Below are positions 46,890-64,000 of a stretch of DNA of 64,000 nucleotides, in pieces. Location of the stretch: NCBI RefSeq assembly GCF_963921235.1, contig NC_086108.1:68016001-68080000 (forward strand), in the 5' to 3' direction. The position numbers and the translations under genes are program-made. The notes below the pieces were generated by a model. The model ran no database searches and was not told where the DNA came from. It worked only from the letters and a program-made list of their open reading frames with translations. The DNA is from Mobula hypostoma (taxonomy: Eukaryota). Numbering within the stretch: the stretch's first letter is position 1; every line of letters starts with the position of its first letter.

Positions 46890-49800
46890 CACTTACTTCA
46901 AAGAATTTTATCACCGTTTCAAAAGACACATAAAAGCATCTCAGGCAGTTTCCTTTTGAGGGTCATCTTACTTCTATGTGTAACAGCAAGTATTCAAGAT
47001 ATTCACCATTCTCCACACAAAGCTCACAACATAGTCAAAGATTGGGTCAAGGGATGATTTTATTTACTGCTGTGATTACGGCATTTAATAATTTGTGCAG
47101 CCAATCATTTAGGTTTTTTTGAGACGGGGTGTTATCTGTGAAATATACAGTGAATGGTAAATATGTTAGGTACAGCTTTTTTCAAGAAAGTAATAACCAC
47201 ACGGTGATGTCTTGTCATTGATGGTATCCCATCTGTTGCACAATCAAGAAGATTTCTAAGCAGAATGCTTTCCTCTTTGAAAGTTTGCTCAACAACCCAA
47301 AATATTGGCCCCCACCCCTTCATATCTGTTTCTAGTCCCGTTGTAAATAAAAGCTCTTGAACCATGTTTTCATCTTCAGCAAACATAACCAAGAAGCAAA
47401 GATTTGCTTCCTGATAAAGTTGACTCATCCCACTGCAGAGTAAATTCTGTTGTGCTAAGTATGTTGCACCAATGTGTCATCACAATCTCAGAAATTTCAA
47501 CTATTCATCTTCGAACAGAGTTGTTGCTAAGCAGAATCACTTTAATTATTTGGTCTGGAGACTTATGTAAAACCATATTCAAGACCCTCCTGTACTGCTG
47601 GCAGAATCAGTTCTTCTCCTATTGTACGGGGCTTTATATGTTGCATGTTGTGTGAAGCACACAAACCATCACTGTTATGTTGTGAAGTGCTGGCAAACAT
47701 GCTTTGAAGTATTTTCCATTTCTGTAAGTTTTCACAAAGTGACTAAAAATAAGCTAAGTTCTGGTTTGCTTTATCATAAAAACATAGAAACATAGAAAAT
47801 AGGTGCAGGAGTAGGCCATTCGGCCCTTCGAGCCTGCACCGCCATTTATTATTTATTATGGCTGATCCTCCAACTCAGAACCCCGCCCCAGCCTTCCCTC
47901 CATACCCCCTGACCCCCATTGCCACAAGGGCCATATCTAACTCCCTCTTAAATATAGCCAATGAACTGGCCTCAACTGTTTCCTGTGGCAGAGAATTCCA
48001 CAGATTCACCACTCTCTGTGTGAAGAAGTTTTTCCTAATCTCGGTCCTAAAAGGCTTCCCCTTTATCCTCAAACTGTGACCTCTCGTTCTGGACTTCCCC
48101 AACATCGGGAACAATCTTCCTGCATCTAGCCTGTCCAATCCCTTTAGGATCTTATACGTTTCAATCAGATCCCCCCTCAATCTTCTAAATTCCAACGAGT
48201 ACAAGCCCAGTTCATCCAGTCTTTCTTCATATGAAAGTCCTGCCATCCCAGGAATCAATCTGGTGAACCTTCTTTGTACTCCCTCTATGGCAAGGATGTC
48301 TTTCCTCAGATTAAGGGACCAAAACTGCACACAATACTCCAGGTGTGGTCTCACCAAGGCCTTGTACAAATGCAGTAGTACCTCCCTGCTCCTGTACTCG
48401 AATCCTCTCGCTATAAATGCCAGCATACCATTCGCCTTTTTCACCGCCTGCTGTACCTGCATGCCCACTTTCAATGACTGGTGTATAATGACACCCAGGT
48501 CTCGTTGCACCTCCCCTTTTCCTAATCGGCCACCATTCAGATAATAATCTGTTTTCCTATTTTTGCCACCAAAGTGGATAACTTCACATTTATCCACGTT
48601 AAATTGCATCTGCCATGAATTTGCCCACTCACCCAACCTATCCAAGACACCCTACATCCTCTTAGCATCCTCCTCACAGCTAACACTGCCACCCCAGCTT
48701 CGTGTCATCCACAAACTTGGAGATGCTGCATTTAATTCCCTCATCCAAGTCATTAATATATATTGTAAACAACTGGGGTCCCAGCACTGAGCCTTGCGGT
48801 ACCCCACTAGTCACCGCCTGCCATTCTGAAAAGGTCCCGTTTATTCCCACTCTTTGCTTCCTATCTGCTAACCAATTTTCCACCCACACCAATACCTTAC
48901 CCCCAATACCGTGTGCTTTAAGTTTGCACACTAATCTCCTGTGTGGGACCTTGTCAAAAGCCTTTTGAAAATCCAAATATACCACATCCACTGGTCATCC
49001 CCTATCCACTCTACTAGTTACATCCTCAAAAAATTCTATGAGATTCGTCAGACATGATTTTCCTTTCACAAATCCATGCTGACTTTGTCCGATCATTTCA
49101 CCGCTTTCCAAATGTGCTGTTATCACATCCTTGATAACTGACTCCAGCAGTTTCCCCACCACCGACGTTAGGTTAACCGGTCTATAATTCCCCAGTTTCT
49201 CTCTCCCTCCTTTTTTAAAAAGTGGAGTTACATTAGCCACCCTCCAATCCTCAGGAACTAGTCCAGAATCTAACGAGTTTTGAAAATTATCACTAATGCA
49301 TCCACTATTTCTTGGGCTACTTCCTTAAGCACTCTAGGATGCAGACCATCTGGCCCTGGGGATTTATCTGCCTTCAATCCCTTCAATTTACCTAACACCA
49401 CTTCCCTACTAACATGTATTTCACTCAGTTCCTCCATCTCATTGGACCCTCTGTCCCCTACTATTTCTGGAAGATTATTTATGTCCTCCTTAGTGAAGAC
49501 AGAACCAAAGTAATTATTCAATTGGTCTGCCATGTCCTTGCTCCCCATAATCAATTCACCTGTTTCTGACTGCAGGGGACCTACATTTGTCTTTACCAGT
49601 CTTTTCCTTTTTACATATCTATAAAAGCTTTTACAGTCCGTTTTTATGTTCCCTGCCAGTTTTCTCTCATAATCTTTTTTCCCCTTCCTAATTAAGCCCT
49701 TTGTCCTCCTCTGCTGAACTCTGAATTTCTCCCAGTCCTCAAGTGAGCCACTTTCTCTGGCTAATTTGTATGCTTCTTCTTTGGAATTGATACTATCCCT

Positions 49801-51100
49801 AATTTCTCTTGTCAGCCACGGGTGCACTACCTTCCTTGATTTATTCTTTTGCCAAACTGGGATGAACAATTGTTGTAGTTCATCCATGCAACCTTTAAAT
49901 GCTTGCCATTGCATATCCACCGTCAATCCTTTAAGTGTCATTTGCCAGTCTATCTTAGCTAATTCACGTCTCATACCTTCAAAGTTACCCCTCTTTAAGT
50001 TCAGAACCTTTGTTTCTGAATTAACTATGTCACTCTCCATATTAATGAAGAATTCCACCATATTATGGTCACTCTTACCCAAGGGGCCTCTCACGACAAG
50101 ATTGCTAATTAACCCTTCCTCATTGCTCAAAACCCAGTCCAGAATAGCCTGCTCTCTAGTTGGTTCCTCGGCATGTTGGTTCAAAAAACCATCCCGCATG
50201 CATTCCAAGAAATCCTCTTCCTCAGCACCTTTACCAATTTGGTTCACCCAATCTACATGAAGATTGAAGTCTCCCATTATAACTGCTGTTCCTTTATTGC
50301 ACACATTTCTAATTTCCTGTTTAATACCATCTCCAACCTCACTACTACTGTTAGGTGGCCTGTACACAACTCCCACCAGCGTCTTCTGCCCCTTAGTGTT
50401 ACGCAGCTCTACCCATATCGATTCCACATCTTCCCGGCTTATGTCCTTCCTTTCTATTGCGTTAATCTCTTTTTTAACCAGCAACGCCACCCCACCTCCC
50501 CTTCCTTCATGTCTATCCCTCCTGAATATTGAATATCCCTGAACGTTGAGCTCCCATCCCTGGTCACCCTGGAGCCATGTCTCTGTGATCCTAACTATAT
50601 CATAATCATTAATAACAATCTGCACTTTCAATTCATCCACCTTATTACGAATGCTTCTTGCATTGACACACAAAGCCTTCAGGCGCTCTTTTACAACTCT
50701 CTTAGCCCTTATACAATTATGTTGAAAAGCGGCCCTTTTTAATGCTTGCCCTGGATTTGTCGGCCTGCCACTTTTACTTTTCTTCTTAGTACTTTTTGCT
50801 TCTACCCTCACTTTACACCCCTCTGTCTCTCTGCACTGGTTCCCATCCCCCTGTTGTGAACATATTGTATTCTCTTCCAATGTTCAAGAAGCCTGGGCAG
50901 CTTCATTGCCTCATTTGAAAAAAAAACTTTTTCACACAACCAACAATTGGCTGTTGTTGGTTGCTTGATGCTGGTATAAACCCATATTTCAGATACTTCA
51001 CACTATACTGCCCACACTTCTTTTATTGTTTGGTCTACCTCTGCCATTTTCTTTATGGATTAATTACCACAGTTAATCATCCACTGTTTAAATCCAACCT
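46890..51100 (-). mobile_element. hAT Buster/Charlie-type transposase relic split by a CR1
   Basis: ORF 47132..47428 has CATDGIPSM and HCIFHR. The N-terminal part (QYSVKYLKYGFIP...SNEAMK...LEH) lies at about 50865-51010, and the frame rejoins across the CR1 as KRIQY|DKANQ. Confidence 0.8.
47779..50860 (-). mobile_element. Young 5'-truncated CR1 with near-complete ORF2 (endonuclease and RT)
   Basis: [58 protein letters not shown]; (CATAGAAA)n tail; CATA duplication at 47775-47778 and 50861-50864; at least two frameshifts and one stop. Confidence 0.95.
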
Positions 51101-55964: not shown

Positions 55965-57749
55965 AAAATCTCAAGGGGAATAAATCACCTGAGCCTGATG
56001 GACTGCATCCCAGAGTTCTAAAAAAGGTAGCTGAAGAGGTTGTGGAGGCATTTGTGGTGATCATACAAAAATCACTAGATTCTTGAAAGGTTCCAGAGAA
56101 GTGCAAAATTCCAAATGTTATTCTACTCTTTAAGAAGGGAGGGAAGCAGAAGAAAGGAAATTAGAGGCCAGTTAGCCTGACTTCAGTGGTGGAGAAGATG
56201 TTGTCCATTATTAAGGAAGAGGTTTCTGGGTATTTGAAGGCACGTGATAAAATAGGTCAAAGTCAGCATGATTTCCTGAAGGGGAAATCTTGCCTAATGA
56301 ATCTGTTGGAATTCTTTGAGGAAATAACAGGTAGGATAGACAAAGGGGAGTCAGTGGATGTTGTTTGGATTTCCACTCACAAGGCTGCTTAACAAGATAA
56401 GAGCCCGTAGTATTACAGGAAAGTTACGAGCATGGATAGAAGATTAGCTAACTGGCAAGAGGCAGAGAGTGGGAATAAAGGGGGCCTTTTCTGGTTGGCT
56501 GCTTTTGACTAGTGGTGCTTCACAAAGGTCGGTGTTAAGACCCTTTCTTTTTACATTATATGTCAAGAATTTGGCTGATACGAATATGGAAGGGTGAATA
56601 GTGTTAAGGAAGCAGAGGTACTTAGCCATAGTGGGAGAATGAGCAAAGAAGTAGCAAATGGAATATTACATAAGGAAATACACGGCCATGCACTTTGGTA
56701 GAAGGAATAAAGGTATAAGCTATTTTTAAATGGTATGAAAATACAAAAATTAGAGGTGCAGAGGGACTTGGGAGTCCTTGTGCAGGATTCCCTAAAAGTT
56801 AACTTGCAGGTTGAGTTGGTTGTAAGGAAGGCAGATGCAATGTTAGCATTCTTTTCAAGAGGGCTAGAATATAAGAGTAAGAATGTCATCCTGAGCCTTT
56901 ATAAGGCATTGGTCGGACCACACTTGGAGTACAGTGAGCAGCTTTGGGCCCCTTATCTACAAAAAGATGTGCTGTCATTGGAGAGGGTCCCAAGGATGTT
57001 CATGAGAATGATTCTGGAAATGAATGGGTTAGCGTATGAGGAGCATTTGATAACTCTGGACCAGTCCTCAATGGAGATTAGAGTCAGAATCAGGGTCAGG
57101 TTTAATATCACTGGAATAAATCATGAAATTTGTTAACTTTGTGGCAGCAGTACAATACAATGCATGATAATATAGAAAAATAAATAAGTAAATCAATTAC
57201 AGTAAGTATATATATATTTGTTAAATAGTTAAATTAAAAATATTGCAAAAACAGAAATAATATAAAAAAGTGAGGTAGTGTTCATGGGTTTAATGTCCAT
57301 TTAAGAATTGAATGACAGAGGGGAAGAAGCTGTTCTTGAATGGCTGAGTGTGTGCCTTTAGACTTCTGTACCTCTTTCTTGATGATAACAATGAGAAGAG
57401 AGTGTGGCCTGAGTGAAGGGGGTCCTTAATAATGGATGCTGCCTTTCTGAGGCCCCACTTCTTCAAGATATCTTGGATACTATGGAGGCTAGTAGCCAAG
57501 GTGGAAGGGTGGGGTGGAATCTCACTGAAATCTATTGAATATTGAAAGGCCTAGATAGAATCAATGTGGATAATATATTTCCTATAGTCTAGGATCAGAG
57601 AGCACTGCCTCAGAATAGAGGGATGTCCATTTCGAACAGAGATCAGGAGGAATTTCTTTAGCCAGAAGATACTGAATCTGTAGAATTAATTGCCACAAAT
57701 GGCTCTGAAGTCCAAGTCATGAATTATATTTAAAGCAGAGATTGAAGGG
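55965..57749 (+). mobile_element. Old CR1 hosting the ERV (continues at 63847-63990)
   Basis: ORFs 56186 and 56735 are CR1 RT pieces. The sequence GAGATTG at about 57744 resumes as ATAGGTTCCTGATTAG at 63847, matching the CR1 at 40845-40870. Confidence 0.88.
57080..57500 (-). mobile_element. Rex1/Babar-type 3' fragment inserted in the CR1
   Basis: ORF 57290..57499 (KAASIIKDPLHSGHTLFSLLSSRKRYRSL). Confidence 0.8.
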
Positions 57750-58140
57750 AGTAACATTGAATCAGGGTTGCAGGTCTGGCAAGTGAGACAGAAAACACTG
57801 ATTGAAAATAAGTATATTAATCATTTATTTACAGACAGTAAAAATTCGACCGAACATACATATTCACCAAGTTATAGAAACCACAAAGCTGAATATTCAA
57901 CAAACATATTTAGTTAAAAACGTGTGCAGAACATACCTTCCCAATGGTTGTGTGCACCACTTGCCTTAAACAAAGGAAGAGAGAAGAAGCCCCTTCCGAG
58001 TGCTATTTTATACCTAGGATATTTGAAACTGGACACCAGGCAGCTCAACAATGGGAAAAGCAACTGCAGTTTCTATACTAAACTATCACAGCAGAAGTGA
58101 CTTTCAACAACCAGAATAAGCCATGCCCCCACAGGGCACA
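57750..58140 (-). repeat. ERV 3' LTR
   Basis: Alignable along its length to 63456-63846. Minus-strand TATA (GGTATAAAATA, about 58010) and AATAAA (about 57825). Confidence 0.88.
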
Positions 58141-58182
58141 CTGACCCTCAAAAGTTGCAACAATGATGGTCCAACCCACAGA

Positions 58183-58429
58183 CTAGAATGACTCTTGCAA
58201 ACTCCCTTTGTTATATATAAAACACAAGAGTACAATACCCAACCCGGAGTGTAATAGCCAACAAGCTGGAACCCCATTTAATCTTATACACTGACTCTCA
58301 GATATGATCAACCAGATGAGTGATGTAACCCAGCCAGTCAGGAATGTAGGTGCAGCATTCTTGACAAATAACAGTACAAGTGCCACCTTTCTTTGTGAGC
58401 AGGTTATCGAAGGTAATTGAAATCATTTC
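58183..58429 (-). pseudogene. env: ERV env TM subunit (ISD end, CX6CC, membrane anchor)
   Basis: ITFDNLLTKKGGTCTVICQECCTYIPD followed by the hydrophobic WLLHSGLGIVLLCFIY. Confidence 0.88.
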
Positions 58430-60230
58430 ATAGAAACATAGAAAATAGGTGCAGGAGTAGGCCATTCGGCCCTTCGAGCCTGCACCGCCATTTATTATGA
58501 TCATGGCTGATCATCCAACTCAGAACCCCGCCCCAGCCTTCCCTCCATACCCCCTGACACCCATAGCCACAAGGGCCATATCTAACTCCCTCTTAAATAT
58601 AGCCAATGAACTGGCCTCAACTGTTTCCTGTGGCAGAGAATTTCACAGATTCACCACTCTCTGTGTGAAGAAGTTTTTCCTAATCTCGGTCCTAAAAGGC
58701 TTCCCCTCTATCCTCAAACTGTGGCCCCTCGTTCTGGACTTCCCCAACATCGGGAACAATCTTCCTGCATCTAGCCTGTCCAATCCCTTTAGGATCTTAT
58801 ACGTTTCAATCAGATCCCCCCTCAATCTTCTAAATTCCAACGAGTACAAGCCCAGTTCATCCAGTCTTTCTTCATATGAAAGTCCTGCCATCCCAGGAAT
58901 CAATCTGGTGAACCTTCTTTGTACTCCCTCTATGGCAAGGATGTCTTTCCTCAGATTAGGGGACCAAAACTGCACACAATACTCCAGGTGTGGTCTCACC
59001 AAGGCCTTGTACAACTGCAGTAGTACCTCCCTGCTCCTGTACTCGAATCCTCTCGCTATAAATGCCAGCATACCATTCGCCTTTTTCACCATCTGCTGTA
59101 CCTGCATGCCCACTTTCAATGACTGGTGTATAATGACACCCAGGTCTCGTTGCACCTCCCCTTTTCCTAATCGGCCACCATTCAGATAATAATCTGTTTT
59201 CCTATTTTTGCCACCAAAGTGGATAACTTCACATTTATCCACGTTAAATTGCATCTGCCATGAATTTGCCCACTCACCCAACCGATCCAAGTCACCCTGC
59301 ATCCTCTTAGCATCCTCCTCACAGCTAACACTGCCACCCCAGCTTCGTGTCATCCACAAACTTGGAGATGCTGCATTTAATTCCCTCATCCAAGTCATTA
59401 ATATATATTGTAAACAACTGGGGTCCCAGCACTGAGCCTTGCGGTACCCCACTAGTCACCGCCTGCCATTCTGAAAAGGTCCCGTTTATTCCCACTCTTT
59501 GCTTCCTGTCTGCTAACCAATTCTCCACCCACACCAATACCCTACCCCCCAATACCGTGTGCTTTAAGTTTGCACACTAATCTCCTGTGTGAGACCTTGT
59601 CAAAAGCCTTTTGAAAATCCAAATATACCACATCCACTGGTTCTCCCCTATCCACTCTACTAGTTACATCCTCAAAAAATTCTATGAGATTCGTCAGACA
59701 TGATTTTCCTTTCACAAATCCATGCTGACTTTGTCCGATCATTTCACCGCTTTCCAAATGTGCTGTTATCACATCCTTGATAACTGACTCCAGCAGTTTC
59801 CCCACCACCGACGTTAGGCTAACCGGTCTATAATTCCCCGGTTTCTCTCTCCCTCCTTTTTTAAAAAGTGGAGTTACATTAGCCACCCTCCAATCCTCAG
59901 GAACTAGTCCAGAATCTAACGAGTTTTGAAAAATTATCACTAATACATCCACTATTTCTTGGGCTACTTCCTTAAGCACTCTGGGATGCAGACCATCTGG
60001 CCCTGGGGATTTATCTGCCTTCAATCTCTTCAATTTACCTAACACCACTTCCCTACTAACAGGTATTTCGCTCAGTTCCTCCATCTCACTGGACCCTCTG
60101 TCCCCTACTATTTCTGGAAGATTATTTATGTCCTCCTTAGTGAAGACAGAACCAAAATAATTATTCAATTGGTCTGCCATGTCCTTGCTCCCCATAATCA
60201 ATTCACCTGTTTCTGTCTGCAGGGGACCTA
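58430..60230 (-). mobile_element. Young 5'-truncated CR1 inserted in env
   Basis: Nearly identical to 47779-49585. CATTTC duplicated at 58424-58429 and 60231-60236. Confidence 0.95.
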
Positions 60231-61100
60231 CATTTCCTGGACAGCCTGACCATACCATGCTGAGAAAGGCTATTATTCAAAAACCTACCTTCCTTCCTTT
60301 GTAAGAGCCCTCTTACCAATCAGCATGGACAAGAGGAGCAACATATGGCACATCATATCAACCACACCATCCTGTAGGTTTGGGAACTGTATATCCAGTA
60401 AGTGCCATTCAGCATCTATTAAATGCTCACCTTCACAACACCATTTGGCATAGATACAGCTGTCCCAGGATACTGTTCCTGTTCACACTTGCCATCCACC
60501 TTGCCCCTTGTACCTGTACTCAACATACCACCTACACCAATACTCTGTCATGCAGGGAAATCACTTTAAGAGTCATGACATTCCAATTAAACAAACGGTG
60601 CATTGGGAAATACCAGGACTTAAAACACTTACTCCACAGGGGTTAATGAGGTTGAAGTCCCTTAAAGCTGTTACCATACTCTGGGTCAAAGATGGCTGGA
60701 ATAGACCACTCTCTCCCAGCTTCCCCAAAACAGAATGCCAAAATGCGAGAAGCCAGATAATTTCCCTTTCTCTTTGGCGTCAAAGGGATCAATATGAGTG
60801 GCATCCCTTTTGTAATGTAGTAAAGAGTCCTCATACAAATTCAGAAATCTGACCCATTGGTCCAGTGTGTAAATTCAAATGCCATTGCCAGGGGTATACC
60901 ACAGGATTTCCTGCCACAAGTCAGCATCCACCACTTTACTATTCTGTAATGCAGGGAGATACAAATGCACTTGCCCCTGATTAGTCACTGGATATTTAGG
61001 GGGAAAAAAACATAACAGAACTACTGGAAGTGCTTCCCAAATGTTTATGTTCCTCTGAAATACGGGCATCTCATATCCAGAATAAAGTTGCCTAAATTTC
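60231..61100 (-). pseudogene. env: ERV env SU region, furin site and start of TM, decayed
   Basis: The minus strand reads PKPTGWCG*YDVPYVAP, then (frameshifted) GKR|ALTK and FSAWYGQAVQEM, which rejoins ISITFDNLL across the CR1. The upstream limit is uncertain. Confidence 0.6.
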
Positions 61101-61414
61101 TATCCCATCAACTCAAATTTCATATGGCCAATATGAAATGTGAGTCATACCTGAAACCAATTGCACGGGTAAACAAATAACAAAGTAGCAGATTAAGACT
61201 CAAAAAAGTAACTGACTAAAAATCACAAGAAACAAACTAACAAATCAGAACACAAAATGTATGCTATACTCCTCTTCTTTACATCTCCATATGAAACTGC
61301 AAAAACTTAAAACAGTTAATTTTGCACAGAGAAGTAACCCACTTATCAGAGATCAACTGAGAAGGAGAAAACAACTGGGTGGGGCCCAGTGCATTCACAA
61401 AGAGCTGTGGGCCC

Positions 61415-61685
61415 GGACGACATCAGGCCAAGTGTATTCAAGGTGTGTGTTGCTCGACTGGGTTCTCCCTGTGGCTACAAGACTCTATAACTCTTCTTCC
61501 TTAAGTATATGGTTTCATTTCACATCTGTATTTTGCACTATTACTTTTTAATGCACAGTTTGTATTTTTTTCATACAGTACCTCAGTGCTTACAGTTTCC
61601 ATTTTAAAGTATATATTTCTGACTGAGCAACCTTGCAACAATAATTTCCTTCAAGATAAATAAAGTTCTGTCTTATCTTTAGTGC
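61415..61685 (+). mobile_element. Short LINE 3' tail inserted in the ERV
   Basis: Opposite orientation to the ERV; ends AATAAAGTTCTGTCTTATCTT. Confidence 0.5.
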
Positions 61686-61899
61686 AAAGTCCTCACACAC
61701 ATACAAGCAAATTGACGCGTGTGGTCACACTTCACATTTCTCCGCATTCAAATCATTCAAACTCTATCCACAGGGAAAAGGGACGCGGGCCAAATGACTG
61801 CCTCCTACAACAATGAGGCACAAATGTGCTAATTACCCTCTGATGCCCACTGCTGCTGAATGATAGCCAAGGTCCTTTGTAGGGAATTCTGAATGGAAC

Positions 61900-63420
61900 A
61901 TGAAGAACTTGGCAAAGGTCTAAAGGAGCCCTTATCTGCAGAGGGCCTGAAGAATAACTCTTCCCTCTCAACAGCCTCCCTTACTTGTTTCCCCGGACAG
62001 TACTTCCTCCACATTGCATTGAGGGTGGGGATGGGAACCCCAGCTCATGCTCCCCCAGGACCCCAGCTTTGAGCAGCACTGAAAACATTTCTTTATGGGA
62101 CATGTAGGATCCCCCACTCAACATCTGCAATCCAACTTCCATACCCGGCTATGCGCTCCCTCTTCTACATACTCTAAACCTTATAATAATTGAATCGCTG
62201 TACTTATAGAACGGCCAGCAGCTGGTGCTAGTAAAGACAGCAGTATTCCCTCAGGTGTAACCACATGTCTTATCAAACCAGAAGTTAATTCAACATCCTT
62301 TGGTGGGCTAACACTATTCTGGTATAATTCTGTGATGAGATCCCACTCGCATAGAACTTTAGTATCCTCCTCTACTGCAGTCCATTCTGCTTGGAATTTT
62401 AAATTCTGTTCAGAAAGAGCATGATACTTGAATTTAACCACTGCCATTACCAAATCCAATTGTGATACATAATGCTCAGGGGAAGCAAGTAGCATTCTCC
62501 AGGCATTATTGATCAAGCATTAGGACTATAGGCTCTCTGAAGCACCCACCCATCTGTTTGATAGGCTCACTCCAGTACACCCCTCGTCCCACATCCTCAA
62601 TAAACACACAGCAAAGATTCCCAGACTTTTGTCTGCAGCTGTCCCCTAAACTCGATAATTCCTTAGCGGGAACTCCCTGAGCTCTGTTGTCTCAAAGGTA
62701 CCCACCTACCATCCCCCACACATTCCCGATCCCTCTTCCCGCACCACCCCCCCCCCCGAGAGGAAGAAGCTGCGGGTGTGGGAACACAGGATTTCCATAT
62801 TATTTTGGATACGCAGGGGAGAGGGCGATCATTTTTAGAATTGAACCGAGTGGTCCACGATACCCTCTCTCCTTTATTTTCATTATCCACCCAGACATTC
62901 CCATCCCCCAGCCCCACAGTAGGATCATCGCCCCACCTCATCATGGCTTGAACTTTAACAGGGTTGGGTTGCCAACCAGCTCGGGGCACAGCACCTAAGT
63001 GCTGTATCTTCATTAGCTGACGAGCTATTTCTATACTCTTATCCTCTAACTTCGCAGCTCGAGTCTGGGCCATCAGCAATGATTCTCTCAGAACAATACA
63101 GTGCTGATTGAGGCTCACAACCTTGTCCTTCACCATTTTATACTGATGCCTTACGATCACTGAAAACAGTCAGAAAGCATCCTGACAGCTATCCTTTCTC
63201 CTGGGATGACCCAGTGATTTAAATATGGAAACAAGGTGCTGTCCTATTTCAACCCCAGTGAAATCTAACTGGTCTGACCAACCTCCTGGCATCCCATAAT
63301 CTATCAGTAGGTTTAGCGAGACTTCCAAAGCCCTTTCTGTTATCTGTCCACTCTGGGACTCTGCTTCTCTCAGACAGGGCTCCCTCTCTTTTAAAGAATC
63401 TTTTAAAGAAATGCATTTCT
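61900..63420 (-). pseudogene. gag: ERV gag, class III (ERV-L/S-like), frameshifted
   Basis: PVKVQAMMRWGDDPTVGLGDGNVWVD (compare ERV-L VKVRALIGKEWDP..WDGDVW); ELSSLGDSCRQKSG..LLRMWDEG at about 62580-62660 (compare QKSGE..WILRVWDNG); EWTAVEEDTKVLCE...PKDVELT. Confidence 0.75.
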
Positions 63421-63434
63421 ACTCAAGTAGCCAT

Positions 63435-63452
63435 ATCCTGCTGGCAGCACCA
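63435..63452 (-). promoter_or_regulatory. Primer binding site, tRNA-Ser-like
   Basis: TGGTGCTGCCAGCAGGAT lies 3 nt after the LTR-terminal CA. It matches 15/18 to TGGCGCTGTGAGCAGGAT (vertebrate tRNA-Ser(CGA) 3' end, recalled from memory). Confidence 0.7.
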
Positions 63453-63455
63453 AAA

Positions 63456-63846
63456 TGGAACGTTGAATCATCAGATTCACCTATCTGGAGACTTAGACAG
63501 AAAACACTGACTGTGAATAAGTACGTTAATCATTTCTTTACAACAGTAAATATTCAACCAAACATTCATGTTCCCCAACTTAGAGAAACTACAAAGCTGA
63601 ATATTCAACAAACATACTTAGTTAAGAGCACACACAGAGCATACATTCCCAATGGCTATGTGAACCGCCTGCCTGAAGGAAAGCAAGAGAAAGAAAGCCT
63701 CTTCCACTTGTTATTTTATACCTGAGGTATTTGAAACTGGGCACCAAGTGGTTTACCAATGGGAAAAGCAGTTGCAGTTTCTAAACTAACCAATCACGAC
63801 AGAAGTGACTCTCAACAATCAAAATAAGGCACTGACCCACAGAACA
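63456..63846 (-). repeat. ERV 5' LTR
   Basis: On the minus strand it starts TGTTCTG and ends TTCCA. TATA GGTATAAAATA at about 63715. Confidence 0.88.
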
Positions 63847-63990
63847 ATAGGTTCCTGATTAGTCAGGACATCACAGGTTATGGGGAGGAGGCAGGAGAGT
63901 GGAATTGAGACAGATAATAAATCAGACATAATGAAATGGCGGGGCAGACCCAATGGGCTGAATGGCCAAATTCTGCTCCTATCTCATACA
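63847..63990 (+). mobile_element. 3' end of the CR1 split by the ERV
   Basis: ATAGGTTCCTGATTAGTCAGG...GGCCAAATTCTGCTCCTAT, a CR1 3' UTR. Confidence 0.85.
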
Positions 63991-64000
63991 ATTTAAGACA

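Follow-up and report, generated by a model that had tools for sequence, protein, structure and literature searches.

A decayed, pol-less class III endogenous retrovirus nested in a CR1 element of Mobula hypostoma, probably one copy of a high-copy, MaLR-like ray family

The window analysed here is a 64,000-nucleotide stretch of the Mobula hypostoma genome (assembly GCF_963921235.1, contig NC_086108.1, positions 68,016,001 to 68,080,000, forward strand). Its minus strand carries, at 57750-63846, a decayed endogenous retrovirus (ERV) that lacks pol, is nested in a CR1 element and reads long terminal repeat (LTR), primer-binding site (PBS), gag, env, polypurine tract, LTR. A preliminary description, made from the letters alone, had proposed this order for a class III (ERV-S/ERV-L-like) provirus with a gamma-type env, and every feature in it was found. 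The copy itself is dead and shows no sign of being functional. That description missed that the copy belongs to a large family without pol, in which env had likely died already in the source element. With good probability, the window element is one decayed member of an ERV-S/ERV-L-related class III family of rays that has many copies and no pol, is non-autonomous, was likely mobilised in trans and is similar in build to the mammalian apparent LTR retrotransposons (MaLRs).

The two LTRs measure 391 bp (5', 63456-63846) and 389 bp (3', 57750-58138) and are 79% identical, with a Kimura two-parameter distance (K2P) of 0.26; LTRs throughout the family are about 390 bp long with TGT...ACA ends. Three Ts separate the 5' LTR from the PBS (63435-63452), which matches the 3' end of host tRNA-Ser (CGA/TGA) at 15 of 18 positions, the other three being mismatches. 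The class III gag is full length at about 530 codons (61829-63416) and is interrupted in this copy by stops and frameshifts. It begins about 20 bases past the PBS, where it aligns with the N-terminus of the ray Gag-Pol protein P0180 described below; with a gap of only about 20 bases (63417-63434), packaging signals may sit in the LTR or inside gag. Both gag motifs named in the preliminary description are present: KVQAM..DP..DGNVW at 62891-62956 and, at 62580-62637, RQKSG..LLRMWDEG in the major homology region (MHR), which is of class III type and is split by a frameshift. The env remnant (60231-61260, limits approximate) comprises a putative signal region, the surface subunit, a furin-like site KR at 60309-60314 and a fusion-peptide region, and its DNA is 71-82% identical to env stretches of the pol-bearing sister locus L042. 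A gamma-type transmembrane subunit (TM) remnant follows at 58200-58429, in which the CX6CC motif (CTVICQECC, 58352-58378) bears out the env type proposed earlier; about 80 bp near 58240 have been lost relative to the other copies compared. A decayed polypurine tract (58139-58149) precedes the 3' LTR. All of these features lie on the minus strand.

The host CR1 lies on the plus strand, with the left part of its 3' region at 57560-57744 and its continuation at 63852-64000. Comparison of the flanks places the target-site duplication, read on the minus strand, at 63847-63851 (CCTAT, 5') and 57745-57749 (CCCTT, 3'), and it is weak in this copy, with three matches in five. When the flanks were projected on uninterrupted CR1 copies, 11 of 14 pairs showed an overlap of 13 bases. 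Since eight of these bases are LTR bases in the right-hand query, five host bases were duplicated, and the flanks are indeed halves of one CR1 3' region.

Two secondary insertions interrupt the element, as the preliminary description had recognised. The first, on the minus strand at 58430-60230, is a young 5'-truncated CR1 flanked by a 6-bp duplication (GAAATG); it has a Pfam match to RVT_1 and is 98-100% identical to other copies. Pfam searches with 14 window pieces gave matches at E < 0.001 to CR1 reverse transcriptase (RT) only. Positions 47875-50883 and 58430-60230 of the window are two members of one young CR1 family with near-identical pieces of the second open reading frame (ORF2). The second insertion, of about 280 bp at 61403-61684, lies in the opposite orientation to the element (plus strand) and is likely the 3' fragment of a long interspersed nuclear element (LINE). 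It is missing from other family copies, matches only itself among the fetched loci, and is spanned by contigs of two other organisms, referred to here as B and D.

The window copy is one of many. An LTR query returned at least 1296 first-look genome candidates, which are not copy counts, and the 40 that were scored are 78-84% identical to it, self excluded. A single gag-piece query returned at least 631 first-look candidates, likewise not copy counts, of which 150 were scored. Sixty family loci of 7-10 kb were retrieved, 59 by similarity to the window gag and one by its LTR pair, and none contains related pol; the sole match is an unrelated insert of 25% identity in L073. Uninterrupted copies are about 4.1 kb long, and the gag-env junction spans at most 700 bp in 31 of the 36 loci that cover both sides (774-2844 bp in the other five). 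Fourteen of 20 loci selected by LTR have no internal sequence nearby and are solo LTRs. The pol-less state is the normal form of the family and not damage to one provirus.

The family also clarifies how these elements integrate and prime. Flanks of 24 two-LTR or solo insertions have a mean identity of 0.73 over 5 bp, compared with 0.21-0.29 over 3, 4, 6 or 7 bp, and 14 of the 24 pairs differ at no more than one of five positions, against 1.35 (maximum 8) in shuffles. The 5-bp duplication of class III elements, faint in the window, is thus clear family-wide. The pattern of the primer tRNA end has 10 genomic matches, and all eight that were fetched are tRNA-Ser (five CGA, three TGA); of the Ser or Leu primer suggested earlier, Ser stands and Leu does not.

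The condition of gag and env in the source element was read from 118 natural stretches, which were aligned and scored for stops common to at least half of the copies. In gag, one phase is free of majority-shared stops across 160 and then 384 codon columns (about 540 in all), and the other two phases contain many shared stops. The apparent change of phase between the two blocks is an alignment artefact, because 42 of 58 rows, and eight of nine long copies, stay in frame across the hand-over. In env, 12 phase changes are required, 11 of them most often out of frame, and the longest stop-free run is 57 codons. The distance between the furin-like site and CX6CC is 92-137 bp in 35 of 37 family loci versus about 237 bp in L042, so that about 40 codons of the heptad and immunosuppressive domain (ISD) region are gone in those 35. 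Family TMs align from the end of the ISD only; the full ISD and N-terminal heptad repeat are absent from the family and retained in the sisters L042, L141 and L146. The shared gag frame, the shared env breaks and the loss of the ISD together indicate that the source element, at the time of its multiplication, was likely without pol and carried a gag that was open and an env that was dead. As for the Cys-His box, which class III Gags lack, the decayed gag pieces that were read revealed no CCHC motif, and Pfam finds none in P0180.

The Gag protein places the family among class III elements of rays. Among 1.84 billion representative proteins, the gag piece has three matches, all from rays (Hemitrygon akajei and Narcine bancroftii), in keeping with the cartilaginous-fish host that had been suspected. 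A profile search added one protein, the Hemitrygon Gag-Pol P0180, and no tetrapod Gag. Because the profile returned only ray Gag-Pol, kinship to tetrapod ERV-L/S Gags rests on the MHR pattern and the linkage to RT. The family MHR, for example YREKSGESLAAWLLRIWDDRG in L001, has the class III pattern Q..GE...W.LR.WD.G and fits the class III rows of Fig. S6 of PMC8278194; the HERV-S row is nearest by eye, and the gamma, lenti, delta, beta and alpha rows are unlike it. Other searches were negative: the L001 MHR piece had no match among longer proteins, gag pieces and the gag profile had none among sequences of the Protein Data Bank (PDB), Pfam had none for the C-terminal gag pieces, and an ESM Atlas search with P0003 gave no score above 0.76. 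A weak DUF5535 match in P0180 (E 0.004) was not reproduced in family pieces and was set aside.

Two of the protein relatives deserve separate mention. P0002 (XP_069743339.1, Narcine bancroftii) is annotated as a SPACA9 isoform and is mostly class III Gag-like; it is probably a gene model that absorbed an ERV. P0180, a 1520-residue Gag-Pol of Hemitrygon akajei annotated as uncharacterized, lacks dUTPase, belongs to a 13-member cluster and falls, with P0003, in the same broad group, which suggests a younger autonomous family in stingrays.

Since the family has no RT, its class was judged on pol-bearing sisters. P0001 joins a family-type Gag to RT, and the top-ranked relatives of that RT, about 44-57% identical, are Pols of amphibians, birds, a turtle, mouse, killifish, bichir and lungfish, many of them with a dUTPase domain. 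The mouse RT cluster contains Mus musculus Gm52800 and by inference only is taken to be MuERV-L-like. With P0001, L041 and L042 as probes, 40 pol loci were fetched. L041, L042, L139, L140, L141, L146 and others have 65-80% DNA identity to the family in gag or env; in several, the final stretch of the LTR (the U5 end, roughly 100 bp) is also shared at about 70-81% identity, and sisters have a Ser-type PBS following a short run of Ts. In L141 the integrase and env homologies are separated by just about 215 bp. A search for dUTPase domains found none in the fetched loci or in P0180.

RT trees were built from single-frame pieces, one with 34 rows and another with 48 of 62 rows after removal of near-duplicates and second pieces; several rows are less than half filled. 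The sisters form a clade (support 96/91) in a ray clade (98/93) within a clade (99/95) of ERV-L/S-like RTs from mouse, chicken, Xenopus, bichir, lungfish and killifish, and the class I-like RTs of the host genome fall outside; the second tree has the same pattern. Together with the MHR, this grouping upholds the class III, ERV-S/ERV-L-like assignment. The claim that the lineage is known mainly from tetrapods was overstated: killifish, bichir, lungfish and toadfish are among the close RT relatives, and PMC6001957 reports the clade Huo, to which class III ERVs belong, across all major lineages of vertebrates.

ERV-L proper has a dUTPase behind its integrase, uses a Leu primer and lacks env. The ray group has a Ser primer, an env remnant and no dUTPase, and is therefore ERV-S-like and not ERV-L proper; a Ser primer, an env and no dUTPase mark ERV-S in PMC8278194.

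These data bear on the reading that the element belongs to Gypsy/BEL or to class I, or is a provirus that suffered a single, isolated deletion. Pfam assigns no family to the gag pieces and the TM is class I-like, as such a reading would have it. Gag is, however, joined to ERV-L/S-like RT in P0001, P0180 and many loci, and the mouse Pol with a dUTPase is 55% identical to the ray RT but 24-36% identical to class I-like RTs. The 5-bp duplication and the recurrence of the same short form in 31 of 36 loci also speak against it, and this explanation is scarcely credible.

One locus joins the family to its sisters directly. At L132:3138-4930 (G000:C71:50510600+), protease and RT pieces 80% identical to L041 abut a family 3' end and an internally deleted LTR; the remaining RT lies in the opposite orientation, and the locus is single and rearranged. 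It is possibly a recombinant of co-packaged RNAs, a chimera of family and helper, or else a relic of the parent.

Younger class III families are also present in the host genome, at L048, L058 and L051-L053. L048 and L058 contain long direct repeats, 94-98% and 96% identical respectively, and in both loci, as in the pol-less family, the LTR is preceded by a GAGGGG(G)TGGAG tract. In L048 this tract stands ahead of each of the two repeats, which hints that the locus may be a tandem array. L051-L053, which lie on small contigs, are nearly identical to one another.

The trans-mobilised, gag-keeping family described above has to be weighed against the reading that Gag was not needed in cis. That account keeps the family and its dependence on helpers, but the parent had gag-pol and a dead env, the gag frame is open only because pol was lost just before a single burst of copying, and the family was pure cargo RNA. 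The copies are nearly equidistant (median identity 75%, range 69-83%), L132 hints at a pol-bearing form with the family LTR, and codon positions among the copies give no sign that Gag was under selection as the family spread, all of which suit a cargo. Yet no gag-pol parent appears among the 40 pol loci, the sisters examined retain the ISD and heptad region, and the whole gag was kept though pro-pol is gone. Cargo is accordingly judged a rather unlikely explanation.

Several points nevertheless count against a family with its own functional Gag and class III helpers. The variants shared in gag show no third-position excess (1/5/1 and 8/9/5), from which the missing selection signal follows, and the codon-position test is uninformative. 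The env frame test hinges on the alignment of copies that are 75% identical, and the 60 loci are a non-random set selected by similarity to the window gag (59) or LTR (1). The RT trees were drawn without HERV-S, HERV-L, XtERV-S, snakehead retrovirus (SnRV) or foamy references, and their mouse row bears its MuERV-L-like label by inference only. Finally, no intact-looking pol-bearing element with a whole family LTR is present among the 40 pol loci.

The gamma-type TM raises the question of reinfection. Twenty loci with TLV_coat, of 78 matches, belong mostly to class I-like families whose gag is unrelated to that of the pol-less family. L022-L024, L026, L027, L029, L031-L033, L035, L036 and L038-L040 are members of one class I-like ERV family, present in multiple copies, whose env frames are long and open and whose TM is of gamma type. 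Recent capture of env from class I-like families was considered and given up, since a similar TM is found in the class III sisters of the ray. If the element were instead a replication-defective virus, its RNA would be pseudotyped with helper Env, supplied with helper Pol and returned to germ cells by reinfection; gamma-type TMs do occur in related class III and class I-like families of this genome, and some of these frames are long and open. Spread inside the cell, as stated for ERV-L and MaLR in PMC11359688, agrees better with an env that is dead throughout the family and with the high copy number, which makes reinfection improbable.

The window insertion is old and is common to organisms B and D. 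Contigs of B span the junction of 5' LTR and host, with a gag match of about 98%, and contigs of D span the same junction, with internal parts about 92-94% identical. This identity far exceeds the 75% between paralogues. The age of the insertion is therefore likely to be several times that of the split from D, and, being shared, the insertion is usable as a marker among related species. Median LTR divergence in the family is 0.20 (0.13-0.27, n = 11). Absolute dating was abandoned: the shark rate assumed in PMC4422223 would give an implausible 450 million years or so for 0.20, and the mammalian rate quoted there about 45 million.

The preferred reading, a gag-keeping family mobilised in trans, suggests the following model. 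The germ line would first have been entered by a class III virus whose env was of gamma type, and one descendant would have lost pro-pol while its env decayed. Its LTR would then have driven a 4.1-kb RNA and the family would have made its own Gag, with helper Gag-Pol providing protease, RT and integrase; the RNA would have been co-packaged, primed by tRNA-Ser and integrated. That the family and its sisters have the U5 end and the type of Ser primer in common is consistent with the use of such helpers. Spread within germ cells would have left hundreds of nearly star-like copies, many later reduced to solo LTRs and others decaying, and the window copy would afterwards have received its two LINE insertions. 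Because the family, its sisters and a candidate family-helper chimera lie in one genome, the order in which env function and pol were lost is testable from sequence.

Comparison with known systems shows which parts of this picture are new. An older review (PMC4977317) lists HERVS/L-like elements for tetrapods. The clade Huo of PMC6001957 contains class III ERVs and is said to infect all the major lineages of vertebrates. The elephant shark CmiERVs, SnRV-like and epsilon-like and defined by pol plus env, are cartilaginous-fish ERVs too, but none is described as ERV-L/S-like or pol-less in the available part of PMC4422223. The presence of class III in cartilaginous fish surprises less than the preliminary description held, and the MaLR-like build is the more interesting result.

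Another known element is ERV-SA.a-Ppe, whose host we take to be the sawfish Pristis pectinata. It pairs a Pol of class III with an Env of the class I gamma type and comes from a survey of fishes and amphibians in which six cartilaginous fishes have such envs (bioRxiv 10.1101/2021.11.23.469661). That survey files its class III Pols as SnRV-related, and in the parts consulted no gag-only family is described. Frogs likewise have class III gag-pol with a gamma-type env (PMC8278194). Neither a class III ERV in fish nor the pairing of class III pol with gamma-type env is therefore new, both having been published. In the literature search, no description turned up of a class III family in cartilaginous fish that has gag only, with Dfam, Repbase, subscription journals and the supplements of the anamniote survey outside the scope of that search; screens that require pol or an intact TM would overlook such a family.

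The class III ERVs like XtERV-S and HERV-S share with the ray family the class III MHR, the Ser primer, the 5-bp duplication and a gamma-type TM with CX6CC. XtERV-S and ERV-L have dUTPase, and the ray sisters, like ERV-S, do not, following PMC8278194. Xenopus also has 19 internally deleted copies, whereas the ray family is pol-less as standard and retains a whole gag.

The MaLRs, which lack pol and env and are eutherian according to PMC11359688, resemble the ray family most in build: both are non-autonomous and pol-less, keep a class III-related gag reading frame, reach high copy number and leave many solo LTRs. The ray family differs in its env pseudogene, its Ser primer and its origin in a ray-specific RT clade, a comparison made by description, and these differences make a parallel origin likely. 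The evidence leans slightly towards the view that rays independently evolved a MaLR of their own, in which an ERV-S-like virus lost pro-pol, its env died, a functional Gag was kept and the element became a parasite of its pol-bearing sisters. If this is true, the family, which has not yet shed its dead env, preserves an intermediate on the way from a class III virus with an envelope to a retrotransposon with gag alone, and MaLR-style dependence of gag-only elements on helpers arose twice, once more in cartilaginous fishes, where the ancestor was ERV-S-like and had an env.

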